Translations under genes and position numbers: made by a program | Shown here: one piece after another, positions 1 through 28,116 of the stretch | Numbering within the stretch: position 1 is the stretch's first letter | How the letters are laid out: each line of letters opens with the position of its first letter | The notes under the pieces: model-generated | Told to the model about the DNA's origin: nothing | The model's input: the letters and a program-made list of their open reading frames with translations, nothing else | Databases searched by the model: none | Assembly: GCA_003142815.1 (NCBI GenBank) | Contig: PLNP01000040.1 | Location: 3,672-67,671 of the forward strand | Reading direction: 5' to 3' | Length of the DNA stretch: 64,000 bases | Source of the DNA: Rhodanobacteraceae bacterium | Lineage (GTDB): Bacteria; Pseudomonadota; Gammaproteobacteria; Xanthomonadales; Rhodanobacteraceae

Positions 1-1
1 C

Positions 2-1135
2 AGCGGCTGGCGCGAGAAGTACGGCAAGCTGCCGTACGGCAAGGGCATCGGCGTCGCCTGCGGTTTCTTCATCAGCGGCAGCGCCCTGCCGATCCACTGG
101 AACCAGCGGCCCGCCAGCACGGTGCGGCTGACGGTCGAATTCGACGGCGCGGTGACGGTGTATTCGGGTGCGTCCGACATCGGCCAGGGCAGCGACACCG
201 TGCTGGCGATGATGGCGGCCGAAGTGCTGGGTGTGGACCTCGGCCAGGTCAAGGTGGTGGCCGCCGATACCCGGCTGACCCCGGTCGACCTCGGCAGTTA
301 CAGCTCGCGGGTGACCTTCATGGCCGGCAATGCCGCCCGCAACGCGGCGATTCGCATGCGCCGGCTGCTGGTCGCGGCGGCCTGCCGGCTGCTCGCGTTG
401 CCCGAGCCCGGGTATCCGGCGCCCGCCCCGCCCGAGGACGGCTTCCGCCAAGGCGGACGTGCGCCCGATTTCGACGCCGACTTCCTGGGCGCCAATCCCG
501 ACTACAGCGACGGCTTCGAGTTCGCCGACGGCCGCATCCGCCATCTCGACAGCGGCAAGCAAACCGGCTTCATCGCGGCCGTGCACGCGGCGATCGAAGG
601 TCCGGGCATCCTGCAGACGGTCGGCAACTACCGCGCACCCAAGCTCGGCGGCAGCTTCAAGGGTGCCGGCGCCGGCCTGTCGCCGGCGTACAGCTTCACC
701 GCCTTCATCGTCGAAGTCAGCGTCGATCCGGACACCGGCTTCGTCAAGGTTGAGCGCGCCACCTGCGCGCACGACTGCGGCTTCGCGCTGAACCCGCTGG
801 CGGTGCGCGGGCAGATCGAGGGCTGCTTCCACATGGGCATGGGCCAGGCACTGATGGAGGAAGTGCTGCACTACGACGGCGCGGTGCAGAACGCCGGCTT
901 TCTCGAATACAAGATTCCGTCGCCGTTCGAGCAGCCCGAAATCGACCTCGTGCCCTCGATCAGCGACGAGAGCGAAGGCCCGTTCGGCGCCAAGGAGGCC
1001 GGCGAGGGGCCGCTGGCGCCGGTGATCCCGGCGATCGCCAACGCCATCTTCGATGCGGTCGGCGTGCGCCTGTTCGAACTGCCGCTGCGCCCCGACCGGG
1101 TGCTGGCGGCGATGCACAAGGCCGCTGGCCGATGA
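2..1135 (+). CDS. hcrA: Xanthine dehydrogenase family molybdopterin-binding subunit, 4-hydroxybenzoyl-CoA reductase alpha (HcrA)-like; 5' truncated by window edge
   Basis: Motifs DIGQGSDT, GSYSSRVT, HDCGFALNPLAVRGQIEG and GPFGAKEAGE (catalytic Glu region); frame open from position 2; adjacent to an HcrB-like gene. Confidence 0.8.
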   Translation, partial: SGWREKYGKLPYGKGIGVACGFFISGSALPIHWNQRPASTVRLTVEFDGAVTVYSGASDIGQGSDTVLAMMAAEVLGVDLGQVKVVAADTRLTPVDLGSYSSRVTFMAGNAARNAAIRMRRLLVAAACRLLALPEPGYPAPAPPEDGFRQGGRAPDFDADFLGANPDYSDGFEFADGRIRHLDSGKQTGFIAAVHAAIEGPGILQTVGNYRAPKLGGSFKGAGAGLSPAYSFTAFIVEVSVDPDTGFVKVERATCAHDCGFALNPLAVRGQIEGCFHMGMGQALMEEVLHYDGAVQNAGFLEYKIPSPFEQPEIDLVPSISDESEGPFGAKEAGEGPLAPVIPAIANAIFDAVGVRLFELPLRPDRVLAAMHKAAGR

Positions 1136-2145
1136 GCGCACAACCGGCCCACTTCGAGTTCGAGCGTCCGGACAGCCTGGCGGCGCTGATTGCCCGACTC
1201 GCGCAGTTGTCCGCTGCGGGCCACGACTTTGCGCTCGCCGCCGGCGCCACCGACCTGATGCCGCAGATCAAGCAGGGGGTGAAAACACCCGCGCTGCTGA
1301 TCTCGCTCAATGGTCTGCCCGAACTGGCCGGTGTGCAGGCGCGTGCCGATGGCAGCCATCGCCTCGGCGCGCTGACCCGGCTCGCCGACGTCGCCAGCGA
1401 TGCGCGGCTGCGCCAGCACTATCCGGCCCTGTGCGCGGCCGCCGGCCGCGTCGCCAGCCCGCCGATCCGCCAGCGCGCCAGCCTCGGCGGCAACCTGCTG
1501 GTCGACAACCGCTGCATCTACATCAACCAGAGCCCGCTCAACCGCGCCGCCCACGCCGCCTGCTTCAAGGCTGGTGGCGAGGTCTGCCCCCTGGTCAAGT
1601 CGGCGGTACGCGGCGAGCTGCCGCAATGCCAGGCGCGTTTCGTCTCCGATACCGCACCGGTGCTGTTGCTGCTCGATGCGGTGCTGCGCCTGGTCTCGCC
1701 GCGCGGCGAGCGGCGCCTGCCGCTGGCGCAGTTCTACCGCGACGACGGCATGCAGCGTCATGTCCTCGCCAGCGACGAGGTGCTGGTCGCCATCGAGCTG
1801 CCGCCAGCGGACGGCCTGCGCATCGACTACGACAAGCTGGCGATCCGCCGGGCGCTGGACTTCCCCTCGCTGGGCATCGCCCTCGGCGTGCGTGCGGACA
1901 GCGCGGGCGCGCTCAGTGAACTGTCGCTGGCGATGACCGGCATCGGCACCCATCCCGGGTGCTGGCACTTCGCCGCCGCCGCGCACGAAAGTCCGAACGC
2001 CCTGCTCGACACCGCCTGCGCCGCCGCGCGCGATTCCGCCACGACCTACCAGCAGGACTTCTTCCCGCGTGACTATCGCAAGCGCATGATCGATGTGTTC
2101 ATCCGCAGGGCCGCGCAACGGCTGGGAGTCGCCAGATGGATGTGA
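1132..2145 (+). CDS. hcrB: FAD-binding subunit with [4Fe-4S] insertion, HcrB-like
   Basis: FAD motifs AAGATDL and ASLGGNLL, plus the four-Cys insert (RC...ACFKAGGEVC...QCQA) characteristic of 4-HBCR beta subunits; ATGA overlap with upstream gene. Confidence 0.85.
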   Translation: MSAQPAHFEFERPDSLAALIARLAQLSAAGHDFALAAGATDLMPQIKQGVKTPALLISLNGLPELAGVQARADGSHRLGALTRLADVASDARLRQHYPALCAAAGRVASPPIRQRASLGGNLLVDNRCIYINQSPLNRAAHAACFKAGGEVCPLVKSAVRGELPQCQARFVSDTAPVLLLLDAVLRLVSPRGERRLPLAQFYRDDGMQRHVLASDEVLVAIELPPADGLRIDYDKLAIRRALDFPSLGIALGVRADSAGALSELSLAMTGIGTHPGCWHFAAAAHESPNALLDTACAAARDSATTYQQDFFPRDYRKRMIDVFIRRAAQRLGVARWM

Positions 2146-3335
2146 GCCCGATGGATGTGAAGCAGGTCATGCGCGACTACTTCGTCGATCTCGGCGAGGC
2201 AGCGAAAGACCCCGGGCGAAAAGTCGCCTGGTGCACCTCAGTGGGTCCGGCCGAGATCCTGCGGGCGATGGGCTTTGCGGTCTACTTTCCGGAAAACCAC
2301 GGCGCCCTGCTCGGCGCCACCCGGGTGTCCACCGACACCATTCCGATCGCCAACGCGCACGGCTATTCGCCGGAGATCTGCAGCTACCTCACGTCCGATA
2401 TCGGCGCCTGTCTGAAGGGCGTGACCCCGCTGAGCAAGGCCTACGGCCTGGACAGCGTGCCGCGCCCGGATGTGCTGGTGTACTGCACCAACCAGTGCAA
2501 GGACGTGATGCACTGGTTCTCCTGGTACGCGCGGCGCTGGAATGTGCCGCTGCTCGGCATCCACCCGCCGAACCACCTGCCGGAGGTGCTGCCCGAACAC
2601 GTGGCCGACGTCGCCGCCCAGTATCGGCGCATGATCGGACGGCTCGAAGCCATCACCGGCACGCTGCTCGATCTGGAAGCGCTGCGCCTGGCCGTGGCCC
2701 GCTCGCGCGAGGCCACCGACCTGTGGGAAGCGGTGCTCAATACCGCACGGGCCCGACCGGCACCACTGAGCTTCTTCGATGGCGTGATCGTCATGGGCCC
2801 GATCGTGGTGCTGCGCGGCACCCAAGCCGCCACCGACTACTACCGGGCGCTGCTCGCCGAACTGCAGGGCAAGGTCGTCGCCAGGCAGGCGGCGGTGCCG
2901 GGCGAGCGCCTGCGCATCTACTGGGAGGGCATGCCGGTCTGGGGCCGGCTGAGGCACCTGTCCGACCTGTTCGCCAACAACCGCGCCACGGTGGTCGCCT
3001 CGACCTACTGCAATTCCTGGATCTTCTCCGACTTCGACGCCGCGCAACCGCTGGACAGCATGGCGCGGGCTTACCTGAAGATCTTCATCAATCGCGACGA
3101 CGCCTACAAGGAGGCCTACATCGAGCGACTGGCCGGCGAGTTCGGTATCGACGGCGTGGTCTACCACGCTGCCCGCACTTGCCCGAACAACAGCAACAGC
3201 TACTACAACCTGCCGCAGCGGCTGGCCGCCAGGGGCATTCCCGGCATCGTCGTCGATGGCGACCTGTGCGATCTGCGCTGCTTTTCCGACGAGCAGAGCA
3301 CCACCCTGATCGAGGCCTTCCTGGAAACGCTATGA
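2136..3335 (+). CDS. 2-hydroxyacyl-CoA dehydratase D-component / benzoyl-CoA reductase BcrB(BadE/BzdO)-like subunit
   Basis: Motifs WCTS, FPENHGA, ICSY, TNQC, ARTCPNNS and DGDLCD; alternative start at 2151. Confidence 0.8.
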   Translation: MDVSPMDVKQVMRDYFVDLGEAAKDPGRKVAWCTSVGPAEILRAMGFAVYFPENHGALLGATRVSTDTIPIANAHGYSPEICSYLTSDIGACLKGVTPLSKAYGLDSVPRPDVLVYCTNQCKDVMHWFSWYARRWNVPLLGIHPPNHLPEVLPEHVADVAAQYRRMIGRLEAITGTLLDLEALRLAVARSREATDLWEAVLNTARARPAPLSFFDGVIVMGPIVVLRGTQAATDYYRALLAELQGKVVARQAAVPGERLRIYWEGMPVWGRLRHLSDLFANNRATVVASTYCNSWIFSDFDAAQPLDSMARAYLKIFINRDDAYKEAYIERLAGEFGIDGVVYHAARTCPNNSNSYYNLPQRLAARGIPGIVVDGDLCDLRCFSDEQSTTLIEAFLETL

Positions 3336-4237
3336 GCACCGCCGCCGACTGCGATCGTCCGAGCACCGACGCCACGGTCCGCACCGAGGTGTTCTGGGGC
3401 GTGGACTGCGGCAGCGCCGAGATCAAGGTCGCCGCGCTCGACCGCGAAGGGCGGCTGCTGACCACGCGCAGGTGCCGCACCCTGTTCCCGCTGGTCGAGC
3501 ACGTGCACCGCAGCCTGGCCGGTCAAGGCGACGAACTCTCGGCGATTGCCGATGGCGACCGCGACCGGCTGCCGGCCGATGGCCGGCAGCCGGGCCTGCG
3601 CCCCGGCCACAAGGTGTTCGCCACCGGCTACGGGCGTCACCACATCGGCTTCGTGCAGGGCCAGCTGACCGAGATCAAGGCGCATTATCTCGGCGTGCAG
3701 CACCAGCTACGGCTGCAGCAGGACTACACCATCATCGACATCGGCGGCCAGGACGCCAAGGTGATCCGCGCCACCCCGAGCCGGGTCGAGCAGTTCGCCA
3801 TCAACCGCAAGTGCGCGGCCGGCACCGGTGCCTATATCGAGGAACTGGCGCACCGACTGGAAGTGCCGATGCAGGAGCTGCCGCGGCTCGCCGCCGCGCA
3901 CGACAAGGATCTCACCCTCAACAGCTACTGCACGGTGTTCTCCGGGCAGGAAGTGATCAAGCTGCTGATGCATGGCGAGCGGGTGGAGAACCTGATCCAT
4001 GCCCTGTATCGCTCGGTGGTCAAGCGGGTGCTGGAAATGACCGCGATCGATACCGACACCCTGGTGTTTTCCGGTGGCGTGATGAGCCACCACCCCATTC
4101 TCGTGCCGCTGTTCGCCGAGCGCTTCGACGAGGTGCGCACCATTCTCGCTCCCAATGCGCAGTTCTGCGGTGCGCTGGGCGCGGCAATCCATGGCATGAA
4201 CGAGGAGAGCGACGATGGCCTACCGAATCACCAGTGA
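3332..4237 (+). CDS. ATP-dependent CoA-substrate-specific enzyme activase (HgdC/BcrA/BzdQ family)
   Basis: GVDCGSAEIK, TGYGR, IDIGGQDAK, NRKCAAGTG, NSYCTVF and FSGGV; ATG at 3332 overlaps upstream TGA (C-terminal part of ORF 2093..4237). Confidence 0.9.
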   Translation: MSTAADCDRPSTDATVRTEVFWGVDCGSAEIKVAALDREGRLLTTRRCRTLFPLVEHVHRSLAGQGDELSAIADGDRDRLPADGRQPGLRPGHKVFATGYGRHHIGFVQGQLTEIKAHYLGVQHQLRLQQDYTIIDIGGQDAKVIRATPSRVEQFAINRKCAAGTGAYIEELAHRLEVPMQELPRLAAAHDKDLTLNSYCTVFSGQEVIKLLMHGERVENLIHALYRSVVKRVLEMTAIDTDTLVFSGGVMSHHPILVPLFAERFDEVRTILAPNAQFCGALGAAIHGMNEESDDGLPNHQ

Positions 4238-4505
4238 CTGCAACCTGTGCGACGCCTGCGTGCCCGAATGCCCGAACGAGGCCATCACAGCCGGCGCCAA
4301 CATCTACACGATCGACCCCGCCAAGTGCACCGAATGCGTCGGTTTCTTCGACGAAGCGCAATGCGCGGCGGTGTGCCCCCAGGAATGCTGCGAGCCCGAC
4401 CCCGACCGCGCCGAGCCCGAGGCGGCATTGCTCGAGCGCGCCCGCAGTCTGCATCCGGACGAGGATTTCTCGGGCGATGTGCCCTCGCGCTTTTCCAGCC
4501 CCTGA
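4215..4505 (+). CDS. fdx: 2[4Fe-4S] ferredoxin, YfhL/Alvin type
   Basis: CNLCDACVPECP and CTECVGFFDEAQCAAVCP motifs with C-terminal helix. Confidence 0.92.
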   Translation: MAYRITSDCNLCDACVPECPNEAITAGANIYTIDPAKCTECVGFFDEAQCAAVCPQECCEPDPDRAEPEAALLERARSLHPDEDFSGDVPSRFSSP

Positions 4506-4539: not shown

Positions 4540-6423
4540 ATGAACCCGGTCCACGCCGCTGTCGATCTGCCCGATCCGGACCTGATCCAGGTCCAGACCC
4601 TGGACGAGATCACCGTCAAGTTCGCCGGCGATTCCGGTGACGGCATCCAGTTGGCCGGGCAGAAGTTCGCCCTGCTGGCCAGCGCCGCCGGCGAGACCGT
4701 GCGCACCATGCCCGACTACCCGGCCGAAATCCGGTCGCCGGTCGGCACCCTCGGTGGTGTCTCCGGCTTCCAGGTGCGTACCGGCAGCGCTGGCATTCAC
4801 ACCCCCGGCGACCGCATCGATCTGCTGGTGGCGTTGAATCCGGCCGCGCTGCGCACCAACCTGCCAGAGCTCAAGGCCAACGGCATCGTCATCCTCGACG
4901 AAAGTGCATTCACCGCAACCAATCTGGCCAAGGCAGGTTACCCCGGCAATCCGCTGGAAGACGGCTCGTTACGCGACTACCGGGTGTTCCCGGTGCAGAT
5001 CGGCAAGCTCACCCGCGGCGCGCTCAAGGGTCTGGCGCTGTCGACCAAGCAGACTACGCGCAGCCGTAATTTCTTCGCGCTGGGGCTGATTTGCTGGCTG
5101 TTCCCGCGCCCCAGGGCGGCGGTCGATGAGTGGATCGAGCAGCGTTTCGCCGCCACCCCGGAACTGGCCAAGGCCAACCATCGCGCCTTCGACGCCGGCT
5201 GGAACTACGGCGAGACCGCCGAGTATTTCGTCAGCCCGTTGCACGTGGCCACCAACCAGCGCATGCGCGAAGCCGGGGTATATCGCTTAGTCACCGGCAA
5301 TGCCGCGCTCGCCAAGGGCCTGGTGCAGTCTGCCCGCCGCGCCGGGCTGTCGCTGTTCCTGGGCGGCTATCCGATCACCCCGGCGACCGAGGTGATGCAG
5401 GAACTCAGCCGCTATCGCGATCCCGACGTGCACATGTTCCAGGCCGAGGACGAGATCGCCGCGATCGGCAGCGCCATCGGCGCCGCCTTCGCCGGCGCGC
5501 TGGGCGCCACCAGCACCTCCGGCCCGGGGCTGTCACTGATGGGCGAGTTCCTCAACCTCGCGGTGATCGCCGAGCTGCCACTGGTGGTGATCGACGTGCA
5601 GCGTGCCGGCCCGTCCACTGGCATCCCGACCAAGTCCGAGCAGGCCGACCTGCTGCAGGCCCTGCACGGCCGACACGGCGAATCGCCGCTGCCGGTGCTG
5701 GCCGCCGCCACGCCCGCGGACTGTTTCGCGACCGTGGTCGAGGCCAGCCGCATCGCCCTGCGCTACATGACGCCGGTGGTCGTGCTCAGCGACCTGTCGC
5801 TGGCCAGCGGTGCCGAAGTCTGGCGCGAGCCGGCGCTGGACGAGCTGCCCGAGTTCACCCTGCACCGCAGCGTCGCCGCGGCGGATTTCAAACCCTACCG
5901 GCGCGATCCGGAAACCCTGGCTCGGCCCTGGGCGGTGCCCGGCGACCCCGGTATGGAGCACGTCATCGGTGGCCTGGAGAAAGCCGGCGAGAGCGGTGCG
6001 GTGTGCTACGAAGCGGAAAACCACGCGGCGATGGTGCAGCTGCGCCACGACAAGGTCGCCGGCATCGCCCGCGATTATCCGGCCACGGCGGTGCATGGCG
6101 GCACCGATGCCTGCCTGCTGCTGCTCGGTTGGGGCAGCACCTTCGGCGCCATCCGCGAGGCCACCGACCGCCTGCGCCAGCGCGGCCGTTCGGTGGCCTG
6201 CCTGCACCTGCGCCACCTCAACCCGCTGCCACACGACTTGGGCGAGGCGCTGCGCCGCCACCGCGCGGTGCTGGTAATCGAGAACAACAGCGGCCAACTC
6301 TGGCAGCAGCTGCGCGCCGAGTACCTGCTCGACCTGCAGCGCCTGAACAAGGTGCAAGGCACCGCGTTCCGCATCGCCGAGATCGTCGAGGCCACCGAAT
6401 CGCTGCTGGAGACTCTGCCATGA
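4540..6423 (+). CDS. korA: 2-oxoacid:ferredoxin oxidoreductase alpha subunit (fused gamma-alpha)
   Basis: KFAGDSGDGIQLAG, GYPITPATE, QAEDEIAAI, TSTSGPGLSL and DVQRAGPSTGIPTK motifs; ATG at 4540. Confidence 0.92.
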   Translation: MNPVHAAVDLPDPDLIQVQTLDEITVKFAGDSGDGIQLAGQKFALLASAAGETVRTMPDYPAEIRSPVGTLGGVSGFQVRTGSAGIHTPGDRIDLLVALNPAALRTNLPELKANGIVILDESAFTATNLAKAGYPGNPLEDGSLRDYRVFPVQIGKLTRGALKGLALSTKQTTRSRNFFALGLICWLFPRPRAAVDEWIEQRFAATPELAKANHRAFDAGWNYGETAEYFVSPLHVATNQRMREAGVYRLVTGNAALAKGLVQSARRAGLSLFLGGYPITPATEVMQELSRYRDPDVHMFQAEDEIAAIGSAIGAAFAGALGATSTSGPGLSLMGEFLNLAVIAELPLVVIDVQRAGPSTGIPTKSEQADLLQALHGRHGESPLPVLAAATPADCFATVVEASRIALRYMTPVVVLSDLSLASGAEVWREPALDELPEFTLHRSVAAADFKPYRRDPETLARPWAVPGDPGMEHVIGGLEKAGESGAVCYEAENHAAMVQLRHDKVAGIARDYPATAVHGGTDACLLLLGWGSTFGAIREATDRLRQRGRSVACLHLRHLNPLPHDLGEALRRHRAVLVIENNSGQLWQQLRAEYLLDLQRLNKVQGTAFRIAEIVEATESLLETLP

Positions 6424-7391
6424 GCCAGACCACCGTCATTCCGGCAGCCACCGCGGAGCTGCCGACACCCCCCGACCGCGCGCACTTCCTGAGCGGCACC
6501 GCACCGCGCTGGTGCCCCGGTTGCGGCTGCTTCGGGGTGCTCAAGTCGCTGACCGCCACCTATGCCCGCCTCGGCGTGCCGCGTGAGCGGCTGGTCACCA
6601 TCTCCGGCATCGGCTGCACCTCGCGCCTGCCGTACTACACCGGCACCTATGGCTTTCATACCTTGCACGGTCGCGCCCCGAGCGTGGCTCTGGGCGTCAA
6701 GCTGGTCAATCCTGAACTCTCGGTCTGGGTGATCTCCGGCGACGGCGATGCGCTGGCGATCGGCACCAACCACACCCTGCATCTGTTGCGGCGCAACCCC
6801 GATATCAAGATGCTGCTGCTGAACAATCAGATCTACGGACTGACCAAGGGCCAAGCCTCGCCCACCAGCCCGCTCGGTCTGGTCACGCGCTCGACCCCCT
6901 ATGGCGTGGCCGACGCTCCGATCAATCCGGTCAACCTGGCGCTGGCCGCCGGCGCCAGCTTCGTCGCCCGTGTCGCCGACACCAACGGCGCGATGATGGA
7001 GGAGGTATTCGCGGCGGCGCACGCCCATCGCGGCGTGGCCTTCGTCGAGGTGTTGCTCAATTGCGTCACCTTTCACGACGGCGCTTACGCCATGATCACC
7101 GACAAAGACACACGCGACGAGTACGCGCTGGCGATGTGTCCGGGCCAGCCGTTACTCTACGGCAAGCAGCAGCGCAAGGTGCTGGTGGCCGACAACGGTC
7201 GGATCCTGGCGCTGCCGCTGGCCGAGGGGGAGGCGGTGCCCGACCAAGCCCTGCGCCACGACCCGCAGGCGGGCGACGCCGGCCTGGCCCAGCAGCTTGC
7301 CCTGATGGGGCCGCCCGATCTGCCCTGCGCCCTGGGTATCTTCAGGCAGGTGCAGGCACCGGTCTACGGCCTTGACCCGAAGCCCGACTAG
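6420..7391 (+). CDS. korB: 2-oxoacid:ferredoxin oxidoreductase beta subunit (TPP-binding)
   Basis: WCPGCG, SGIGCTSR, HTLHGRA, SGDGDALAIG and NNQIYGLTKGQASPT. Confidence 0.92.
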   Translation: MSQTTVIPAATAELPTPPDRAHFLSGTAPRWCPGCGCFGVLKSLTATYARLGVPRERLVTISGIGCTSRLPYYTGTYGFHTLHGRAPSVALGVKLVNPELSVWVISGDGDALAIGTNHTLHLLRRNPDIKMLLLNNQIYGLTKGQASPTSPLGLVTRSTPYGVADAPINPVNLALAAGASFVARVADTNGAMMEEVFAAAHAHRGVAFVEVLLNCVTFHDGAYAMITDKDTRDEYALAMCPGQPLLYGKQQRKVLVADNGRILALPLAEGEAVPDQALRHDPQAGDAGLAQQLALMGPPDLPCALGIFRQVQAPVYGLDPKPD

Positions 7392-7400: not shown

Positions 7401-7832
7401 ATGGACCACCTATACGTGCATCGTGCTCCCGTGCGTTTCACCCACACCGATCCCGCCGGCTACGTGTTCTTCCCGCGCTTTTTCGAGATGTTCCAGGCTG
7501 CGGTCGAAGACTGGTTCAGCGACTGCCTCGGACTGAACTACGCCGAGCAGATCGTGCAGCATGGCGTCGGCTTCCCGACCGCGCATACCGAATGTGATTT
7601 CGTGCGTCCCTGCCGGCTCGGCGAAACGCTGGAACTGCGGTTGGTGCTGGAAAAAGTCGGCCGCAGCTCGCTGACCCTGCGTTTCGATGGCAGCGTGCAG
7701 GGTGAGACGCGGCTGCGCGCGCGCTCGGTGCTGGTGACGATCGAGATGCAATACGGCCGCCCGCAACCGCTCGGCGCCGAGCTGCGCGAGCGCTTGCAGG
7801 CCTATCTGGCGCTCTGCCAGGCCGATGCCTGA
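7401..7832 (+). CDS. 4-hydroxybenzoyl-CoA thioesterase family (hotdog fold) acyl-CoA thioesterase
   Basis: VRFTHTDPAGYVFFPRFFE motif; AGGAGG RBS at 7391. Confidence 0.85.
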   Translation: MDHLYVHRAPVRFTHTDPAGYVFFPRFFEMFQAAVEDWFSDCLGLNYAEQIVQHGVGFPTAHTECDFVRPCRLGETLELRLVLEKVGRSSLTLRFDGSVQGETRLRARSVLVTIEMQYGRPQPLGAELRERLQAYLALCQADA

Positions 7833-8418
7833 GCTGGCCGCGCTGATCTTGGCCGCCGGTGCCGGCCGGCGCTTCGGGGCGATCAAGCAACTGGCGCCGG
7901 TACGCGGCGAACCGCTGATCCGCCATGCCATCGCCCTGGCCGAGGCGGTGGCGCCGGGCGCTGTGCAGGTGGTGCTCGGCGCCCATCGCGCGCAGATCGC
8001 CGCCCAACTGCCGCAGGGCGTGCCGGCCATTGAACACCCCGGCTGGGCCGAGGGGCTCGGCAGCAGCCTGGCGGCCGGCATGGTCGGATTGCGCGGACAG
8101 CCCGACGGCGTGCTGTTGCTGCTGGCCGACCAGATCGCCTTGCGCGCGGACGCCCTGCAGGCGCTGGCGGCACGCTGGCGCACCTTGCCCGAGACGGTGT
8201 TCTGCGCGTTTTATGGCGGCCAGCCCGGGGTGCCGGCGATCTTTCCACGCCGGCTGTTCGCCGAACTGGCCGCCTTGCGCGGCGAGCGCGGCGCCAAGCC
8301 GCTGCTGCTGCGCGAGAGCGGCCCGGCCACGCAACTGGCCATGCCCGAGGCGGCCATCGACATCGACACCGCCGAGGATCTGGCGCGCTGGCAGGCGAGC
8401 TCAGCAGCCTGGTCTTAG
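7825..8418 (+). CDS. mocA: Molybdenum cofactor cytidylyltransferase (MocA-like nucleotidyltransferase)
   Basis: LILAAGAGRRFGAIKQL, GLGSSL, LLLADQ, GVPAIFPR and DIDTAEDL. Confidence 0.85.
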   Translation: MPELAALILAAGAGRRFGAIKQLAPVRGEPLIRHAIALAEAVAPGAVQVVLGAHRAQIAAQLPQGVPAIEHPGWAEGLGSSLAAGMVGLRGQPDGVLLLLADQIALRADALQALAARWRTLPETVFCAFYGGQPGVPAIFPRRLFAELAALRGERGAKPLLLRESGPATQLAMPEAAIDIDTAEDLARWQASSAAWS

Positions 8419-8583: not shown

Positions 8584-9885
8584 TCAGGGAAAGTGGTCGA
8601 TGCGCCGGCATTCGGTCCCGTACCGGCGGGTGGCGCTCAGCAGGTTCAGCCCAAGCAGGGCGAAGTCGGCCAGCCACATTACTGCGGCCGGGCGCAGCAG
8701 GGCCGGCAGCAGCACTGCGGCCAGCAGCACCGCCAGCGCTGCCAGGTGCAGGTAGAACTGCTGCCGGCTGCGCGGTTCCGGCAGTATCGACTTCATGTTC
8801 GGCAGGACGATGCGGTGGCGCACCTCGATTCGGGTGGCGAGACGCTGCTGCAGATGCAGCCAGACCAGGAACGGTACGATCTTGTAGAGCATGCCGTTGA
8901 CCACCGACAGCGCGAAGCCGAGCAGGAACAGCAAGGTCGCCGCCAGGGCCAGGCTTGCCGCCACCGCAGGCGGCGCCAGCCGGGACGCGGCGCCGATCGC
9001 CGCCGCCAGCAGCAGCCCCGCCATGCCCAGTCGCCAGAAGTAGAGGCTGGTGTCGCCGACCTTGCGTCGGCGCTGAGCCAGCAGGCGCAGGGTGATCAGC
9101 GCAAAGATGGCCAGCGCCGCCGCCAGCAGCAGCGCCGGCAGCTGCGCCAGCGGCCAGCCACGCAATACCGCCAGCGAGTGCCAGCCCAGCAGCGCGAACA
9201 TGCCGGCCGCCAGCCAGCGGCGCAGCCGCGGCGGGTAGGGCGGCGTCATCTGGAACATCGGCACCAGCTGCCAGGCTACTACCGCGACCAGGGTCGCGAT
9301 CCAGCCGAGCAGGCCCCAGGCCAAGTGCAGGTCGGTCAGCGGCCAGCGCAGCAGCGGCAGCCCAAGGCCACTATGGCCGAGCCCGAGCGACAGGCCGAGA
9401 CCAACCGTCAACGCCAAGCCGAGCAGGGCCCAGCGCATCCCGCGCACGCTGTCCTGCAAATGCGGCGCCCGTGCCAGGCCAAACCCCATCACCGCCAGGA
9501 ACCCGCCGAGGCCAAGTCCAAGCAGCACCACCGCCACACGGAAACCATCCTGACCGACGCCCAGGAAGCCGGCTGCCAGACTCAGCGTACCCAGCACCAG
9601 CAGGCCATGGCACAGCCCGCCAACCAGCCGCGGCCGCGTCACCCGCACCCCGGCCAGCACCGGTAGCATCTGCAACAGCGCCCCGCACATCACCATGGCC
9701 AGCACGCCGAGCACCAGCAGGTGGCTCAGCGCCAGCGCGCCCACGCTCCAGCGCGACGCCAGCACGTCGGGGCCGAGCCACAGCAGCAGGCCGGCGGCGG
9801 CCAGGCCGAACAGCGGCGCGCTCAGAAAAAAACGCAGCGGCACCGACAGTGGCGGCGCCTGTTCCAGCGACAGTCCCGCGTTCAC
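8584..9885 (-). CDS. Polytopic membrane protein with His-containing helices (NnrS/heme-copper-oxidase-I-like uncharacterised family)
   Basis: About 12 hydrophobic segments; SHLLVLG...GALLQMLPV, HLAWGLLGW and GMLYKIVPFLVWLH; GTG start. Confidence 0.65.
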   Translation of the reverse strand: MNAGLSLEQAPPLSVPLRFFLSAPLFGLAAAGLLLWLGPDVLASRWSVGALALSHLLVLGVLAMVMCGALLQMLPVLAGVRVTRPRLVGGLCHGLLVLGTLSLAAGFLGVGQDGFRVAVVLLGLGLGGFLAVMGFGLARAPHLQDSVRGMRWALLGLALTVGLGLSLGLGHSGLGLPLLRWPLTDLHLAWGLLGWIATLVAVVAWQLVPMFQMTPPYPPRLRRWLAAGMFALLGWHSLAVLRGWPLAQLPALLLAAALAIFALITLRLLAQRRRKVGDTSLYFWRLGMAGLLLAAAIGAASRLAPPAVAASLALAATLLFLLGFALSVVNGMLYKIVPFLVWLHLQQRLATRIEVRHRIVLPNMKSILPEPRSRQQFYLHLAALAVLLAAVLLPALLRPAAVMWLADFALLGLNLLSATRRYGTECRRIDHFP

Positions 9886-10142: not shown

Positions 10143-10570
10143 CAGTGCGCCTGCATGCGTTCCAGCAACGCCTCGGCACGGTCGGCCAGGGCGCGATCGC
10201 ACATCGGATAAAGCATCTGCTCTTCCTTCATGTTGTGCTGCTGGATCAGGATGTTGAGGGTTTCACCGAAGCCGAGGAAGTCGTCCAGCTCGCCGCTTTC
10301 CAGCGCCTGCCGCATCTGCGCCATCATCGCCCGTATCTGCTCGTGTTCCATGCGCATCACCGCAGTCGGGCCGCCGGCCATGCCGCTGCGCGCCTCGAAT
10401 TCGGGAAACAGCACACTCTCCTCGATCGACAGGTGCTGCGCCATCGCCGCTTCAAACTCGGCGTAGGCCGCGCGGGCGGCATCGCGGTCGCCGTCATTGG
10501 CAGCGTTTTCGGCCTTGGCGAACAGCCCGTCGCAGACGCGATGATCGGCAGTGAGGAAGTCGGTCAGCAT
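10142..10570 (-). CDS. Hemerythrin-like domain protein
   Basis: DHRVCD, HLSIEESVLFP, MRMEHEQIR and QHNMKEEQMLYP His/Glu di-iron motifs. Confidence 0.88.
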   Translation of the reverse strand: MLTDFLTADHRVCDGLFAKAENAANDGDRDAARAAYAEFEAAMAQHLSIEESVLFPEFEARSGMAGGPTAVMRMEHEQIRAMMAQMRQALESGELDDFLGFGETLNILIQQHNMKEEQMLYPMCDRALADRAEALLERMQAH

Positions 10571-11646
10571 GGCGGGGCCTCGTGCGTTCGGATAGCACAA
10601 GACTCTGGCACACGGCCGCAGCGCTGGCCTTGCTCTGCATCAAGCCGTTGCACTTGTGTCTGCAGGCGTGCCGCCAGTGACAGCGCGATGGCGGCGGCAC
10701 CGCGGCCGCCCAAGGGCAGCCCGGCCGGCGACTCCAGCCACCCACCCAGGCGTTCGCGGACACTGCCCGGCAGCGTGGCGAACAAGTCGTCACGCCGCGA
10801 TTCCGGGCCAATCAGGCCGATATAGCCCGGCAGCTGCGGCCAGCCCGCCAGCGTCGCCAGCACCTCGCGGTCGTGGCCGAAGTGGTGGGCCATGACCAGC
10901 ACGGCGTCGTAGCGGCCGCCCTCGGTCGGAGTAACCGGCAGCAGGCGTTCGACCTGGGCCCTGCAGGCGGCCCAGTCCGAGCGCGGCTCGATCAGATCCA
11001 CCCGCCAGCCGAGCTCGTCCAGCAGCGGCAACAGGATTTCGCTTTCCGGCCCGGCACCGCAGATCAACACCCTCGGCAGCGGCGCCAACTGCAGGGCCCA
11101 GATGGCGCCATCGGTTTCCGCCGCCGCGGTCCCGACGTCCACCGGCAGGGACCATTCGGCCTGCAGGGCGCCGGTCTGCATGCACAGCCGACCCTGCGTG
11201 GCGTAACTCAGCCGCAGCGCTTTGCCATGTTCACGGTAGCTGGCCAAGATCGGGTGCAGGCCGGGCAGCGCCGCCAGCGGCAGCACCACCACCCGCTGCC
11301 GGCCACGGCATCCGGCGCCGGAGCCGGAAAACACATCGGACAGATCACGGTTGTCGAGGTCGAGCAGGCGCACCCGGCCATCGGCCTGGGCGGCATCGGC
11401 CGCCGCCAGCACATCGCCTTCGAGACAGCCCGGACTGACCCAGCCGCAGCGTCGGCCCGCGGCGCTGAAATGGACCAGGGTTCCCGCTTTGGCATAGGCA
11501 TGGCCGGCGACTTCGAGCACCAGCGCCAGCGCACCGGGTTGCGGCTGGCCGATATCCTCGAGGCAGGCGTCGAGCGCCGCCTTGCTGGGCGCACCGGGGG
11601 CGTGGCGCGCTGGCAGTACTGATTCCGGGTTCATGGGGGTGATCAC
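10564..11646 (-). CDS. xdhC: XdhC/CoxI family molybdoenzyme maturation factor
   Basis: GHAYAKAG, GWVSPGCLEGD, GAGCRG, ICGAG, YIGLIGPESR and PAGLPLGG motifs. Confidence 0.85.
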   Translation of the reverse strand: MITPMNPESVLPARHAPGAPSKAALDACLEDIGQPQPGALALVLEVAGHAYAKAGTLVHFSAAGRRCGWVSPGCLEGDVLAAADAAQADGRVRLLDLDNRDLSDVFSGSGAGCRGRQRVVVLPLAALPGLHPILASYREHGKALRLSYATQGRLCMQTGALQAEWSLPVDVGTAAAETDGAIWALQLAPLPRVLICGAGPESEILLPLLDELGWRVDLIEPRSDWAACRAQVERLLPVTPTEGGRYDAVLVMAHHFGHDREVLATLAGWPQLPGYIGLIGPESRRDDLFATLPGSVRERLGGWLESPAGLPLGGRGAAAIALSLAARLQTQVQRLDAEQGQRCGRVPESCAIRTHEAPPC

Positions 11647-11671: not shown

Positions 11672-11970
11672 CTAACCCGCCAGCGGCTCGAAGCGTGCGA
11701 TCAAGTGCCGCAGCGCGGGCGGCTCGTCGGTGATCCGGTAGCCGCGCAGCTCGCCAACGCGGGCCGCGACCTCGGCCCAGATCTCGATGACGTAGTCGAT
11801 GTGGCTCTGGGTATAGGTACGGCGGGGAATGGCGAAGCGGACGAGGTCGAGGGCGGCGGCTGTTTCGCTGCCGTCGGGGTGGCGGCCGAACATGACGGTG
11901 CGACCTCGCAGCTGCGGACGCCGCCAGCCTCGTAGAGCGCGATGGCGAGCGCCTGACCGGGGTACTGGCG
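11672..11970 (-). pseudogene. tnaA: Tryptophanase / tyrosine phenol-lyase C-terminal fragment with a 1-bp deletion
   Basis: YPGQALAIALYEAGGVRSCEV in one frame continues as TVMFGRH...LVRFAIPRRTYTQSHIDYV in another; GTC GC ACC near 11900 where GTC GGC ACC is expected; no 5' part present. Confidence 0.75.
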
Positions 11971-12109
11971 GAACGTGGCGTAACCGGTGAATTGCACGCA
12001 TCATCTTCTGATTCTGACTCCTTTTGATCCGAACCGCCTCGCCTCGCGAGGCGCCATGTAAACAGAACACCCCGCATGGAGCAGTCAGCCCACCTATCTG
12101 GAAGGCTTG

Positions 12110-14350: not shown

Positions 14351-14462
14351 GCACGCCATTCGTAAACGACTGGCCACGCCGACTGCGAAATACACGACAG
14401 CGCAGGTGGTATTGCCATCATCCGATCTGGTCAGAGCGGTGGCCGCCTGTGCTCGCGATTAT

Positions 14463-15428
14463 TCACGAGTCTTTGACTGCGATCCGCAAACCCTGGTGCC
14501 GCCGCCGCCGCCAAGCCAGCACTCCGAGTCCAAGCAGCAATACAGTAGCCAGCAGGCCCACCATGGAACTGTCGATGGCCCACACTGCGGACACACTGCT
14601 GGTCTGGTGACTGTAGAGGTCGATCCATTCGTGCAGTGCGACGGTTAGCGCGAGGCACACCGAGATGCCGGTAATCAGCGTATTGAGGCGCAGCGTACGA
14701 TCGCGGTCTGCAATCGCCCAGTCGTATAGACGCAGCATGAGAAGGCTCTGCAAAGTATCCATCGACGCCATGCCTGCTGCGAACAGCAGCGGTAGCATCA
14801 TCACGGCCAACAACGGAATTCTGCCATCATGCGCGGCGACCACCGAGATCGCCAGCAGCGCGACTTCGCTGGCGGTATCGAAGCTTAGCCCGAACAACAT
14901 GCCGAGCGGGAACATCTTCCAGCTGTGGTCGGTGTTGCGCGCAATTCGACCTAGCCCGAAGCCGTGACGGTGCTCCTTGCCTGAATGCCGATCACGCAGC
15001 ATGGCTGCAAAGAAGCGCAGGTTGGCCAATCCGATCAGGGTCAGGAAGACGGCCGACACCAGGCTGCCGAACAGCGATCCCCAGTCCGACAACTGCGGCA
15101 GCAATACGCCAATGTGGTGAGCTGCGACGACCGCAACGGCGGTCAGCAGCAGGACGACGGTGGAATGCCCGAGTGAAAAGAACAGCCCGACGCCGGCTGG
15201 GCGTTGCCCCTCGGCACGCAGGCGGCGTGTCACATTATCAATCGCGGCGATATGGTCGGCGTCGAAAGCATGCCGCACGCCGAGCAGATAGGCGATCATC
15301 CCAACACTCAATCCGACCGCGCCGAAGCCACCGAGCCATAGGGCACCACCACCCGCCAGCAGGTTGAGCAGCAACAAGGCTGCCATGACTGTTAGCACGC
15401 GCTCGCGCAGCGATGAGTTCGCGCGCAT
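14463..15428 (-). CDS. hoxN: High-affinity nickel/cobalt permease (NiCoT, HoxN/NixA family)
   Basis: RHAFDADHIAAID, FFSLGHS and FGLSFDTASE signature motifs. Confidence 0.92.
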   Translation of the reverse strand: MRANSSLRERVLTVMAALLLLNLLAGGGALWLGGFGAVGLSVGMIAYLLGVRHAFDADHIAAIDNVTRRLRAEGQRPAGVGLFFSLGHSTVVLLLTAVAVVAAHHIGVLLPQLSDWGSLFGSLVSAVFLTLIGLANLRFFAAMLRDRHSGKEHRHGFGLGRIARNTDHSWKMFPLGMLFGLSFDTASEVALLAISVVAAHDGRIPLLAVMMLPLLFAAGMASMDTLQSLLMLRLYDWAIADRDRTLRLNTLITGISVCLALTVALHEWIDLYSHQTSSVSAVWAIDSSMVGLLATVLLLGLGVLAWRRRRHQGLRIAVKDS

Positions 15429-15431
15429 GGC

Positions 15432-19152: not shown

Positions 19153-19155
19153 GGG

Positions 19156-20274: not shown

Positions 20275-20284
20275 CTGTGGGTCC

Positions 20285-20728
20285 TCAGTTCCCGGGCTGC
20301 TGCGCCGCACCGGCGGCACCGGCCCGCAGCTGTTGCGCACCGCGCCGCAGCTGGTCTGGTTCCACGGGAAGAATCGCCGGCACTTGGGCGATTTCGATGA
20401 ACCCGGCGATCAACTCGCCGCCGCGATCGCGGTATTCGCTCCACCACACGCCCTGGATCCCGGTCTCGTTGATCGTTGACTCGCCGTCCCCCTTCAACGT
20501 GATGGTGACCTCACCGGGCCCCAATGCCTTCAGCAATTGCTCGCGATCGCCCGGGCTCATTGGCAAGCTGCGCAAATCGATGGCGCCTGGCTCCCCACCA
20601 TCGGCCAGCCGGTCGAGTTGCGTGGCAATCTCGATCAGAATCGCCGTCACGCCGGCGCCGATGGTGCCAGTGGACGCCGCCGGGGTCCGCGACACGATCC
20701 GAATCGGAATTTCGCCGAGCCGGCTCAT
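20285..20728 (-). CDS. Hydrogenase expression/formation protein (HupH/HyaF C-terminal-type)
   Basis: IDLRSLPM, LGPGEV and ETGIQGVWW motifs. Confidence 0.8.
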   Translation of the reverse strand: MSRLGEIPIRIVSRTPAASTGTIGAGVTAILIEIATQLDRLADGGEPGAIDLRSLPMSPGDREQLLKALGPGEVTITLKGDGESTINETGIQGVWWSEYRDRGGELIAGFIEIAQVPAILPVEPDQLRRGAQQLRAGAAGAAQQPGN

Positions 20729-21255: not shown

Positions 21256-21326
21256 GACTTCCACCGCCACGATGCCACTCCGCGTCGCCTTCGGCGGGAG
21301 TGAACCATATCCGGACATCAATCGTA

Positions 21327-28115: not shown

Positions 28116-28116
28116 C

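Follow-up and report, generated by a model that had tools for sequence, protein, structure and literature searches.

A conserved pair of one HGD-D family subunit and one activase accompanies a complete benzoyl-CoA reductase and is tentatively read as a 2-hydroxyacyl-CoA dehydratase

The two genes between hcrB and fdx in the window (the whole 64-kb stretch of DNA that was analysed) encode one HGD-D family subunit, here called D, and one activase. Both are part of a widespread enzyme family, as yet uncharacterised, whose members are accompanied by a CoA ligase and a PanE-type ketoreductase of their own, and they stand beside a canonical four-subunit benzoyl-CoA reductase (BCR) rather than in its place. 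The pair is a further, self-contained member of the radical enzyme family of BCR and the 2-hydroxyacyl-CoA dehydratases, which we tentatively read as an ATP-primed (R)-2-hydroxyacyl-CoA dehydratase of the aryl-lactyl type that would feed (hydroxy)benzoyl-CoA. This is the best reading, somewhat short of an even chance, and a single-subunit aryl-CoA reductase is its close rival.

The window opens inside an hcrA-like gene, of which the C-terminal 377 codons are present (2..1135; PF20256, E 6e-64; best NCBIfam match TIGR03194), which leaves the operon's upstream part out of view. On the same plus strand follow an hcrB-like FAD subunit gene (1132..2145; PF00941; best NCBIfam match TIGR03195), the D gene (2136..3335, 399 aa; PF06050, E 2.9e-68) and a BcrAD_BadFG ATPase gene for the activase (3332..4237, 301 aa; PF01869, E 1.2e-29). 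Further downstream on this strand are a YfhL-type 2x[4Fe-4S] ferredoxin gene, fdx (4215..4505; NF033683, 99.1 bits against a cut-off of 86), korA and korB for the two subunits of a 2-oxoacid:ferredoxin oxidoreductase (4540..6423, TIGR03710 620 against a cut-off of 482.75; 6420..7391, TIGR02177 240, below the cut-off of 261.9), a 4HBT-type acyl-CoA thioesterase gene (7401..7832; PF13279/PF03061) and a gene for a MocA-type molybdenum cofactor cytidylyltransferase (7825..8418; PF12804; TIGR03310 106.5, below the cut-off of 186). A gene for an XdhC-type chaperone, assigned via locus L042, occupies 10564-11646 on the minus strand. As the first-pass annotation had described, one D-component and one two-Cys activase are the only genes between hcrB and fdx. 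Overlaps amount to 10 nt for hcrB/D, 4 nt (ATGA) for D/activase and 23 nt for activase/fdx, and D and the activase are translationally coupled. The ATG of D at 2136 is preceded by GGGAG at a spacing of 7 nt, and the second Met (2151) is the start in most D homologues.

The same annotation had placed the pair instead of the four-subunit enzyme, and this part of its proposal does not hold. A tblastn search found no second HGD-D or BcrAD gene within the 64-kb window. However, contig PMLT01000004.1 (L049) matches window positions 1-2094 with 100% identity and carries upstream of the pair the gene string had-oah-dch-tetR-bcrC-bcrB-bcrA/D-ligase-apbA-fadB-thl-sdr-thl2-hcrCAB. Its bcr genes lie on the same strand as the pair and end 11.8 kb upstream, so the ordinary BCR that had been named as evidence against the proposal is essentially there. 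BcrC (TIGR02263, 507 against a cut-off of 421), BcrB (TIGR02260, 719 against 487) and BcrD (TIGR02261, 402 against 313) all pass. An apparent bcrA-bcrD fusion and a split oah in this contig were rejected as effects of NN scaffold gaps. The L049 gene order recurs in L048 and in the Bdellovibrionota MAG L053; L038 has bcrA-bcrD-ligase, and Emcibacter has oah-bcrC-bcrB downstream. Since the BCR of L049 is complete by itself, the pair is additional, neither a BCR remnant nor a replacement. What survives of the proposal is the one-plus-one unit.

By family, fold and residues, D is a subunit of the catalytic-alpha type (HadB/MbdO/BzdO) without a beta or relay partner. On NCBIfam models it scores 202 bits for HadB, 128 for BcrB, 70 for BzdO and 67 for the double-cubane family, all below cut-off (750 for the HadB equivalog, 486.55 for BcrB, 350 for double-cubane). 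Among PDB chains D is closest in sequence to HadB alpha, then MbdO, then BzdO, and a profile search against PDB sequences gave 200 bits for HadB, 144 for MbdO, 102 for BzdO and 38 for DCCP. The AF2 model of D (pLDDT 82.6) has HadB as its top Foldseek match (3o3m_A; TM 0.88, rmsd 2.6 A, 29% identity), with TM values of 0.84-0.86 for MbdO and BzdO (MbdO, 27% identity, 0.84-0.85) and 0.76-0.78 for DCCP/YjiM-type double-cubane proteins. Residues C82, C121 and C349 align with the BzdO ligands C95, C128 and C380, and E53 aligns with Glu65. The HadB residues Ser37 and Glu55 correspond to S35 and E53, which are invariant in D together with the three cysteines. BzdO His131 is replaced by Val124, and Gly37 stands at the position of BzdO Trp46, a residue that fills lost sub-cluster space (PMC11971306).

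Additionally, D has Cys at five of six double-cubane ligand positions (C1, C3, C4, C5 and C7), including C33 (C1) and C292 (C5), where HadB has lost it. Position C6 is not Cys; its candidate substitute, C382, is not kept in relatives at 43-51% identity. The C2 position is the catalytic Glu of alpha subunits. While hhalign relates D to YjiM with 94% probability at 23% identity, its sequence groups with the catalytic alpha subunits, cluster III and not cluster IV of PMC7317905.

The activase is predicted to be an ATP-dependent, homodimer-type protein of the HgdC/BcrAD type, scoring 152 bits on TIGR00241 (cut-off 125.4). In sequence it comes closest to the PDB chains of MbdQ, HgdC and HadI, and its cluster cysteines, C161 and C200, are kept in 11 of 11 aligned relatives and in YjiL, with which it shares 33% identity.

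Homologues of D with 62-93% identity occupy 41 genome loci, which span at least five phyla or classes and include MAGs of proteobacteria, acidobacteria and myxobacteria. The activase follows D at every locus. An Hcr-like molybdenum enzyme (hcrCAB) lies directly 5' of D in 30 of the 41 loci, with overlapping hcrB and D codons. The pair may act directly on the Hcr product, as had been suggested; at least 10 loci have D and the activase without Hcr or any nearby molybdenum enzyme. In the better-sampled of these a CoA ligase is always present, immediately 5' of D in seven loci without Hcr, and L026 reads ligase-apbA-fadB-thl-sdr-D-activase. An unusual CoA ligase of about 590 aa and a PanE/ApbA reductase accompany D down to 45% identity, where L059 retains apbA and D together with its activase and a ligase of this type, arranged differently. 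ApbA, ligase, D and activase therefore form a conserved quartet. Furthermore, the ApbA/PanE domain is fused to the D domain in three independent proteins (P0242, P0244 and P0255). FadB-like and thiolase genes are present in the module and an acyl-CoA dehydrogenase gene is absent from it.

In the Hcr-like enzyme, the full-length HcrA-like protein of L049 scores 813.5 against a cut-off of 994.55, the HcrB-like subunit 220 on TIGR03195 (cut-off 404.55) and the gamma subunit 149 against an equivalog cut-off of 258. The HcrB-like subunit matches T. aromatica HcrB (1rm6_B) with 166 bits and has retained each of the four cysteines in its additional [4Fe-4S] loop. A four-Cys loop of this kind is characteristic of the Hcr enzyme that dehydroxylates reductively. 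The fdx product is likely the low-potential donor common to BCR, Hcr and the pair, and fdx lies 3' of the activase only in gammaproteobacterial relatives. A KorAB-type enzyme is the standard ferredoxin-regenerating partner of the Thauera-type BCR.

In the dehydratase reading, KorAB would regenerate reduced ferredoxin, from which the activase would take one electron and, at the expense of ATP, pass it into the three-Cys [4Fe-4S] cluster of D, as expected from family chemistry. The activated cluster would then generate a ketyl radical by reducing the thioester carbonyl of a CoA ester. The substrate would be supplied by a PanE/ApbA-type NADPH reductase that converts a 2-oxo acid to the (R)-2-hydroxy acid and by the AMP-forming ligase of about 590 aa that makes its CoA ester. 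D, probably a homodimer, would with its activase carry out syn-dehydration of (R)-2-hydroxyacyl-CoA to 2-enoyl-CoA, to be shortened by the FadB-like hydratase/dehydrogenase and thiolases. Favoured substrates are aryl-lactates such as 4-hydroxyphenyllactate or phenyllactate, from the corresponding pyruvates, which would yield (4-hydroxy)cinnamoyl-CoA and then (4-hydroxy)benzoyl-CoA. The Hcr-like enzyme would dehydroxylate this product, and the upstream BcrCBAD, Dch, Had and Oah would dearomatise it. Reduction of a 2-oxo acid to a 2-hydroxy acid feeds clostridial HAD pathways. Paralogues of PanE/ApbA reduce alpha-keto acids with NADPH, and one of them acts on 2-ketoisocaproate (bioRxiv 10.1101/2024.01.05.573888).

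The reading draws on the closeness of D to HadB alpha by sequence, profile and fold, on the conserved quartet and the ApbA fusions, and on the four-Cys loop of the Hcr-like beta subunit. With FadB-like and thiolase genes and no acyl-CoA dehydrogenase, the enoyl-CoA must come by another route. Against it, the beta subunit is absent, whereas the characterised HADs known to us are all alpha/beta heterodimers. The HadB score of D is far short of the cut-off, MbdO is almost as similar, and C33 and C292 are kept. Among the relatives found for the ligase, none that is characterised is informative. The ApbA-D fusion suggests consecutive steps, yet the dehydratase scheme puts the ligase between them.

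The close rival, which we consider possible and rather doubtful, is a single-subunit ATP-driven reductase for hydroxylated aryl-CoA. Its substrate would be, for example, 3-hydroxybenzoyl-CoA, made from protocatechuoyl-CoA by loss of the para-hydroxyl via Hcr, or 4-hydroxybenzoyl-CoA. The ring would receive two electrons from D and the activase, the resulting enol would tautomerise to oxo-cyclohexenoyl-CoA, and ApbA would reduce that ketone at once, with FadB, SDR and thiolases as a parallel ring-opening branch beside Dch/Had/Oah, like mbd beside bzd. A dehydratase requires only catalytic activation by its activase, and the tight 1:1 coupling of D and activase suits a stoichiometric reductase better, as do the neighbouring ferredoxin-regenerating systems (korAB here; rnf genes near the pair in L010 and L051). 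The recurrent position of D right after hcrB points the same way. In L057, a relative of 51% identity, an ApbA-D fusion and activase again lie beside an HcrA-like molybdenum enzyme; the genes are ordered differently there, and ligase and beta-oxidation genes are absent. This set fits successive action on one ring better. The fusions would also suit trapping of an unstable product. The cysteines at C1 and C5, with Gly37 in place of Trp46 (PMC11971306), could supply the electron storage given by BzdN in BCR; the fold of MbdO/BzdO is nearly as close as that of HadB; and the module of Emcibacter L026 and L054 is bordered by had and dch-like genes with no bcr between them. However, reduction of a CoA-bound cyclic ketone is known for no ApbA/PanE enzyme, BzdO His131 is lost, and the third distal ligand, C6, is missing, with C382 not conserved in relatives at 43-51% identity. 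The ligase scores 47.5 bits against benzoate-CoA ligase 2v7b and about 97 against oxalyl-/malonyl-CoA synthetases, and no dch, had or oah lies near the minimal ligase-D-activase loci. Moreover, the genome has an ordinary BCR, and T. aromatica reportedly uses its own for 3-hydroxybenzoyl-CoA.

It is improbable that the pair converts no CoA ester and serves instead as an "archerase" pump, delivering very low-potential electrons to the Hcr-like enzyme at the cost of ATP, or as a DCCP-like small-molecule reductase. The repeated adjacency to HcrA-like enzymes, the L057 FAD subunit without the ferredoxin-accepting [4Fe-4S] loop, the one-plus-one architecture of DCCP/DCCP-R (PMC7317905) and the double-cubane cysteines are consistent with such a role. 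The loci free of molybdenum enzymes with their CoA ligases, a fold nearest to CoA-ester-binding alpha subunits (TM 0.88, against 0.78 for DCCP) and the invariant catalytic Glu/Ser pair of HadB/BzdO argue against it. It is very improbable that the organism relies on this pair to reduce benzoyl-CoA, as a homo-oligomeric enzyme of two genes in place of BcrABCD: the window's single D and activase genes, the catalytic Cys and Glu residues of D, and fdx and korAB placed as in Thauera bcr clusters would fit, but the operon of this genome that holds the pair also encodes a complete BcrCBAD, with C, B and D above equivalog cut-offs, relatives from other phyla also carry a complete BCR, and D reaches 128 of the 486.55 bits needed on the BcrB model.

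The closest known systems to the proposed dehydratase are HadBC/HadI of Clostridioides difficile (PDB 3o3m) and the related phenyllactate dehydratase FldBC/FldI. The pair shares with HadBC/HadI the best match of D, the three-Cys ligands and Ser/Glu pair, an adjacent HgdC-type two-Cys activase, and an (R)-2-hydroxy-acid-making enzyme family and a CoA-activating enzyme alongside. It differs in lacking a HadC-type beta subunit, in an AMP-forming ligase in place of a CoA-transferase, in the extra conserved cysteines C33, C292 and C382, and in sitting in a benzoyl-CoA operon, not in an amino-acid-fermenting clostridium. With the class I BCRs, BcrCBAD (Thauera type), BzdNOPQ and MbdONQP (PDB 8s02, 9g87, 9gai), it shares superfamily, fold, the BzdO-equivalent ligands and Glu, an activase driven by ATP, and the setting with ferredoxin and KorAB. 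These enzymes have two subunits of each kind where the pair has one; the pair also lacks a BzdN/BcrC-type relay subunit and has Val and Gly for His131 and Trp46 of BzdO. DCCP/DCCP-R of Carboxydothermus (PDB 6eno, 7yyl) and E. coli YjiM/YjiL are the same one-plus-one kind of gene pair, and DCCP/YjiM are distant homologues of D. The analogy to YjiML drawn in the first-pass annotation is weak: the arrangement and the YjiL-like activase support it, whereas D is of the catalytic-alpha type, its 7-Cys motif is incomplete (67 against 350 on the double-cubane model), and the CoA ligase beside the pair points to a CoA-ester substrate. Finally, the Hcr-like enzyme resembles HcrCAB of Thauera aromatica (1rm6) in its three XO-family subunits, in having 4-HBCR models as best NCBIfam alpha and beta matches, and in the MocA and XdhC maturation genes nearby. 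Unlike HcrCAB, all three subunits fall below equivalog cut-offs (813/995, 220/405 and 149/258) and the [4Fe-4S] loop has a 5-residue insertion; thus its true substrate may be other than 4-hydroxybenzoyl-CoA, for example a hydroxycinnamoyl- or dihydroxybenzoyl-CoA.

Between hcrB and fdx lie two plus-strand genes that encode a single HGD-D family protein, here called D (2136-3335, 399 aa; PF06050, E 2.9e-68), and a single BcrAD_BadFG ATPase, the activase (3332-4237, 301 aa; PF01869), which scores 152 bits on TIGR00241 against a cut-off of 125.4. The Pfam and NCBIfam calls, together with tblastn of the window, confirm the first-pass annotation in its description of 2136-4237 as one D-type subunit plus one activase, and a tblastn search of the 64-kb window (E up to 10) returned no second HGD-D or BcrAD gene. 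The string, all on the plus strand, opens with the C-terminal part of an hcrA-like gene truncated by the window start (..1135; PF20256) and an hcrB-like gene for an FAD subunit (1132-2145; PF00941). After the pair it continues with a YfhL-type di-cluster ferredoxin gene (4215-4505; NF033683, 99 bits, cut-off 86), korA (4540-6423; TIGR03710, 620 bits, cut-off 482.75), korB (6420-7391; TIGR02177, 240 bits, below the cut-off of 261.9), a 4HBT-type thioesterase gene (7401-7832; PF13279/PF03061) and a gene for a MocA-type cytidylyltransferase (7825-8418; PF12804). Overlaps of 4 nt (hcrA/hcrB), 10 nt (hcrB/D), 4 nt (D/activase, ATGA) and 23 nt (activase/fdx) join the genes, and the GC content of the window's first 12 kb is about 0.68-0.70. 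In Thauera-type bcr clusters the electron donors are usually encoded by fdx and korAB; these genes cannot be assigned exclusively to the pair.

The same annotation had proposed that the pair stands in place of the four-subunit benzoyl-CoA reductase (BCR). Because the window starts inside hcrA, the region upstream was invisible to that reading. We recovered the upstream DNA in two ways, from loci encoding D homologues and from contigs bearing the co-conserved ligase. One of the ligase-bearing contigs, L049 (GCA_003159285.1, PMLT01000004.1), is 100% identical to window 1-2094 and thus displays the window's own upstream region, in the order had, oah, dch-like, tetR, bcrC, bcrB, bcrA/bcrD, 599-aa ligase, apbA, fadB-like, thiolase, SDR, second thiolase, hcrC, hcrA, hcrB. 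Scores exceed the NCBIfam cut-offs for had (TIGR03201, 457 against 339), bcrC (TIGR02263, 507 against 421), bcrB (TIGR02260, 719 against 487) and bcrD (TIGR02261, 402 against 313). The bcrC and bcrB genes lie 14-16.5 kb upstream of the D start, with bcrC starting at 16.5 kb and bcrD ending at 11.8 kb. The genome thus has a complete four-subunit BCR of the Thauera type in addition to the pair, and the bcrC partner and second activase that the annotation had named as the finding to speak against it belong to a full bcrC, bcrB, bcrA, bcrD set. This refutes the idea of a two-gene BCR and leaves an orphan enzyme system that is well defined and has clear partners. As two D-type and two ATPase subunits already belong to the upstream BCR, the pair represents a fifth and a sixth gene and not a leftover half. 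A split oah and an apparent bcrA-bcrD fusion (747-aa call) in L049 were set aside as products of NN scaffold gaps at 3232-3233 and 8870-8871; in a 93%-identical relative, L048, bcrA, bcrD and oah are normal separate genes. The supercluster is also found in L048 and in a Bdellovibrionota MAG (L053). Locus L038 has the order bcrA-bcrD-ligase, and the Emcibacter module has korBA, oah, bcrC and bcrB downstream of it.

Downstream of mocA, the minus strand carries a 433-aa ORF (8584-9885) whose coding signal is strong but which matches nothing in Pfam or NCBIfam. It is 60-82% identical to an ORF located just 3' of mocA in gammaproteobacterial relatives, where hemerythrin, DUF2249 and XdhC genes follow. 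A tryptophanase/tyrosine-phenol-lyase-type gene is reduced to its last ~105 codons at 11675-11983 (minus strand; 68% identity to the L036 copy), and a full 485-aa gene of this type adjoins the cluster in loci L001, L002, L007, L033 and L036. The remnant coincides with a drop in GC from 0.70 to 0.61 near 12000, which places a synteny break there. A [NiFe]-hydrogenase cluster occupies 14400-29200 on both strands. It encodes a NicO transporter, the hydrogenase large subunit (15432-17174, minus strand), an HdrD-like subunit of the Fer4/CCG type, the small subunit, HupH and HycI, and next come hypA, hypB, hypC and hypD, a HypX-like formyltransferase/enoyl-CoA-hydratase fusion (24085-25803), hypF and hypE. 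The sole tRNA gene of the window, tRNA-Gln(CTG) at 53288-53361 (minus strand), has an ordinary chromosomal context, with a 933-aa Ser/Thr kinase with TPR repeats (48833-51634, minus strand), an ECF sigma factor, rplM-rpsI, COQ7 and trpGDC nearby.

The neighbours of D were mapped by tblastn in 41 genome loci that encode a protein 62-93% identical to it. The activase directly follows D in every locus with downstream sequence, and hcrB directly precedes the pair in 30 of the 41, so that the synteny survey proposed at the outset bears out the association. In seven loci from marine Gammaproteobacteria a ligase lies directly 5' of D instead, and locus L026, without hcr, has the order had, dch, tetR, ligase, apbA, fadB, thl, sdr, D, activase. 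The best 120 D homologues listed are all at least 65% identical, and 238 representatives of the wider HGD-D superfamily (50%-identity clusters) match D at E up to 1e-30. Members of the D family come from peat, permafrost, soil, groundwater and marine MAGs; RNA runs from soil and mine drainage gave weak, partial matches (at most 13% of sampled words). Full-text literature searches found no paper describing the pair or its gene cluster, and a paper on aniline and 4-aminobenzoate mentions Hcr-like genes with no dehydratase-type partner.

The ligase belongs to a distinct family of ~590 aa with AMP-binding and AMP-binding_C_3 domains. Searches of NCBIfam, 120 homologues and PDB sequences yielded generic acyl-CoA synthetase matches and no informative characterised relative. 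At L059, where the D relative is just 45% identical, apbA, D, the activase and the same type of ligase are retained in a changed order. Furthermore, D relatives are fused to an ApbA/PanE domain in three independent cases, the proteins P0242 (51% identity; L057 10001-12187), P0244 (45%) and P0255 (37%; L058 4477-6783), and an activase follows each fusion wherever sequence is available. At L057, P0242 and its activase are followed by an XO-family enzyme, whose large subunit matches HcrA best and whose FAD subunit lacks the [4Fe-4S] loop, and then by XdhC and MocA genes. A distant deltaproteobacterial locus (L034), in which D and the activase adjoin multihaem cytochromes, is uninformative for function. 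ApbA, the ligase, D and the activase thus make up the conserved core, with an HcrA-like Mo enzyme as a frequent partner and the benzoyl-CoA pathway as a frequent host operon.

Two marine gammaproteobacterial MAGs place an rnf operon with apbE beside a minimal ligase-D-activase unit (L010 12014-21081 and L051 17372-21797), and the rnf region of L010 also holds a 1097-aa Fe-S/TPP protein. The 90-kb contig JAJFLA010000003.1 carries two ligase-D-activase copies in opposite orientation (L014 11624-32805 and L015 57184-78365) with identical match statistics, which may mean a genuine inverted duplication or an error of assembly.

Both sequence and predicted fold mark D as a subunit of the catalytic alpha type. 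A search of PDB chains with D recovered the HadB alpha subunit (3o3m_A) at 162 bits, MbdO at 118 and BzdO at 65, and no beta/relay subunit or chain of a double-cubane cluster protein (DCCP) at E up to 0.01. The D family profile scored HadB at 200 bits, MbdO at 144 and BzdO at 102, followed by DCCP (38), HadC (28), MbdN (24) and BzdN (18). An AlphaFold2 model of D (pLDDT 82.6, pTM 0.85) was compared with solved structures by Foldseek and gave TM 0.88 for HadB (3o3m_A; rmsd 2.6 Å, 29% identity), 0.84-0.85 for MbdO (26-27%), 0.85-0.86 for BzdO (20-21%), 0.75-0.78 for DCCP (18-19%) and 0.67-0.73 for the beta-type subunits HadC, MbdN and BzdN (15-17%). On the NCBIfam models, D scores 202.5 bits for HadB (cut-off 750), 128.4 for BcrB (486.55) and 70.1 for BzdO (448.6). 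Residues C82, C121, C349 and E53 of D align with the BzdO ligands C95, C128 and C380 and with its acid/base residue Glu65 (PMC11971306), while S35 and E53 align with HadB Ser37 and Glu55; S35, E53, C82, C121 and C349 are invariant in 38 D family members. Val124 of D stands at the position of the second BzdO acid/base residue, His131, which is a weak criterion because that histidine is also not evident in aligned Thauera-type BcrB or MbdO.

Cysteines beyond these three ligands bear on a possible second cluster site. Six are invariant in family members at least 62% identical to D: C33, C82, C121, C292, C349 and C382. We mapped them onto the 7-Cys motif of DCCP, CX19CX18-19CX29CX166-170CX32-34CX32C, which provides six [8Fe-9S] ligands (PMC7317905), and onto the [8Fe-9S] ligands of BzdN, 36/73/100/263/293/327 (PMC11971306). 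C82, C121, C292 and C349 of D correspond to motif positions C3, C4, C5 and C7, and C33 is assigned to C1 by motif likeness ('VAWCT' in D, 'GTYCT' in YjiM) and topology; the profile alignment of D with E. coli YjiM (94% probability) begins at D residue 65. Position C2, a non-ligand Cys in DCCP and the catalytic Glu in BzdO and HadB, is Glu53 in D, and C6 is absent. C382 has no motif counterpart and lies in an insertion of three residues not present in YjiM or DCCP. C1 and C5 are lost in HadB and BzdO, and in BzdO Trp46 occupies the space of the lost sub-cluster (PMC11971306). The C1 and C5 cysteines of D, together with an invariant Gly37 where BzdO has Trp46, suggest that part of the distal site is kept. 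C382 is not conserved in wider relatives at 43-51% identity (absent from P0242, P0243, P0246 and P0247), and C292 is lost below about 39% identity; we therefore rate a second cluster in D as possible, not probable. Such a cluster would explain how a single subunit copes without a relay partner. With C6 missing and C382 and C292 lost in wider relatives, D as a full double-cubane protein is kept as a minority hypothesis only.

The activase retains the two cluster cysteines, C161 and C200, in every relative aligned, and these align with those of HgdC, HadI and YjiL. Its NCBIfam scores for BcrA (100 bits), BcrD (45.5) and BzdQ (75.8) are all far below the cut-offs.

In this enzyme family, an ATP-driven activase delivers an electron into a cluster and the thioester carbonyl becomes a ketyl radical (PMC7317905, PMC11971306; also textbook knowledge). 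By analogy, the activase would spend ATP to transfer an electron from ferredoxin to the D cluster, and that cluster would reduce the thioester carbonyl of its substrate to a ketyl radical. We tentatively favor dehydration of an (R)-2-hydroxyacyl-CoA by D and the activase, at somewhat under an even chance. The PanE-type reductase, the ligase and D would then feed an enoyl-CoA into FadB and the thiolases, with the ligase substituting for the clostridial CoA-transferase. Aryl-pyruvates or aryl-lactates could in this way yield, after one round of beta-oxidation, (4-hydroxy)benzoyl-CoA, exactly the compound on which the Hcr-like enzyme and the BCR of the surrounding genes would act. Consistent with this role, HadB is the closest match of D, FadB and thiolases are encoded in the module with no acyl-CoA dehydrogenase, and PanE paralogues are NADPH-dependent alpha-keto-acid reductases (bioRxiv 10.1101/2024.01.05.573888). 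Dehydration is ranked slightly ahead of the alternative that follows because it asks none of the partners to perform novel chemistry.

Under that alternative, a close rival that we also rate as less likely than not, D and the activase would reduce a hydroxylated aryl-CoA and the ApbA domain would trap the keto tautomer. Such a reaction would explain the ApbA-D fusions, the tight tie to HcrA-like enzymes even where beta-oxidation genes are missing, the 1:1 coupling of D with the activase, the ferredoxin-regenerating neighbours, and the extra cysteines of D. An extended form of it, doubtful when taken as a whole, would make the pair a third way of building an ATP-driven aryl-CoA reductase. Its alpha-type subunit, a single kind forming a homodimer, would have retained some of the ancestral double-cubane site, with C33, C292 and possibly C382 serving as a built-in relay and electron store, so that a BzdN/BcrC partner would be unneeded; it would dearomatise a hydroxylated benzoyl-CoA that an ordinary BCR handles poorly, and trapping of the keto tautomer would fall to the PanE-type reductase, which some lineages have fused to D. 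If true, this enzyme would be an evolutionary intermediate between DCCP and the BCR and 2-hydroxyacyl-CoA dehydratase (HAD) enzymes, and a one-plus-one system would for the first time have a physiological role on a CoA ester. A role as an electron pump or in small-molecule conversion is improbable, since some loci have D but no Mo enzyme, and the well-sampled ones always include a CoA ligase. The reading of the pair as the sole BCR is scarcely credible with a complete bcrCBAD in the same genome.

To our knowledge, all characterised CoA-ester-converting radical enzymes of the BCR and HAD types are heterodimers of a catalytic and a relay subunit, and we know of no physiological substrate for the one-plus-one systems, DCCP and YjiM. 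The D family appears from its sequences to be a catalytic-type subunit without a relay partner that is highly conserved across phyla. Its partners form a defined set, the ligase and the PanE-type reductase, often joined by an Hcr-like Mo enzyme and a complete benzoyl-CoA pathway, and this makes its function directly testable. If confirmed, either dehydration or reduction would be a new step in the anaerobic catabolism of aromatics or amino acids by bacteria of peat, soil and the sea, with possible relevance to the proposal that BCR and HAD enzymes evolved from double-cubane proteins. In annotation, "BcrB/HgdB-like" matches of the D type should count neither for nor against a benzoyl-CoA reductase.

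Class I BCR (BcrCBAD/BzdNOPQ), which uses ATP to reduce benzoyl-CoA by two electrons to the dienoyl-CoA, needs two different HGD-D subunits, catalytic B/O and relay C/N, and two different BcrAD_BadFG ATPases, whereas the pair has one of each; D also falls below the BcrB and BzdO equivalog cut-offs, whereas the true BcrB of the same genome reaches 719. HAD (HadBC/HgdAB/FldBC) is an alpha/beta heterodimer of two adjacent HGD-D genes. The pair lacks a second, and no HadC-type gene lies beside D here or in the 41 related loci, where the other nearby D-type genes are true bcrC and bcrB. D resembles HAD in its HadB alpha fold, three Cys ligands and Ser37/Glu55 equivalents, and the activase, as in HAD, is the product of one gene and has two cysteines in each monomer, suited to a [4Fe-4S] cluster that bridges a predicted dimer. 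The co-conserved PanE/ApbA-type reductase and AMP-forming ligase may correspond to the HAD pathway partners, a 2-oxo-acid reductase that yields the (R)-2-hydroxy acid and a CoA-activating enzyme, with the ligase in place of the usual CoA-transferase. The earlier analogy to YjiM/YjiL pairs holds for the layout of one acceptor gene and one ATPase gene and is weak for D itself, which is not closest to DCCP, has no phmmer match to 6eno and has an incomplete 7-Cys motif. D was rejected as a YjiM/DCCP orthologue at 66.8 bits on the double-cubane model NF040772 (cut-off 350), a profile score of 38 bits against 200 for HadB and TM 0.78 against 0.88. The hcrCAB-like neighbours resemble 4-hydroxybenzoyl-CoA reductase in their three XO-family subunits and in the FAD subunit loop, whose four cysteines align with 1rm6_B, but score below its cut-offs (alpha 813.5 against 994.55, TIGR03194; beta 220.1 against 404.55, TIGR03195; gamma 149.3 against 257.8, TIGR03193). 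Lacking a beta/relay subunit and a complete 7-Cys motif, and scoring below all equivalog cut-offs, the pair falls outside all three families considered, yet it appears to work like the catalytic module of a HAD or BCR.
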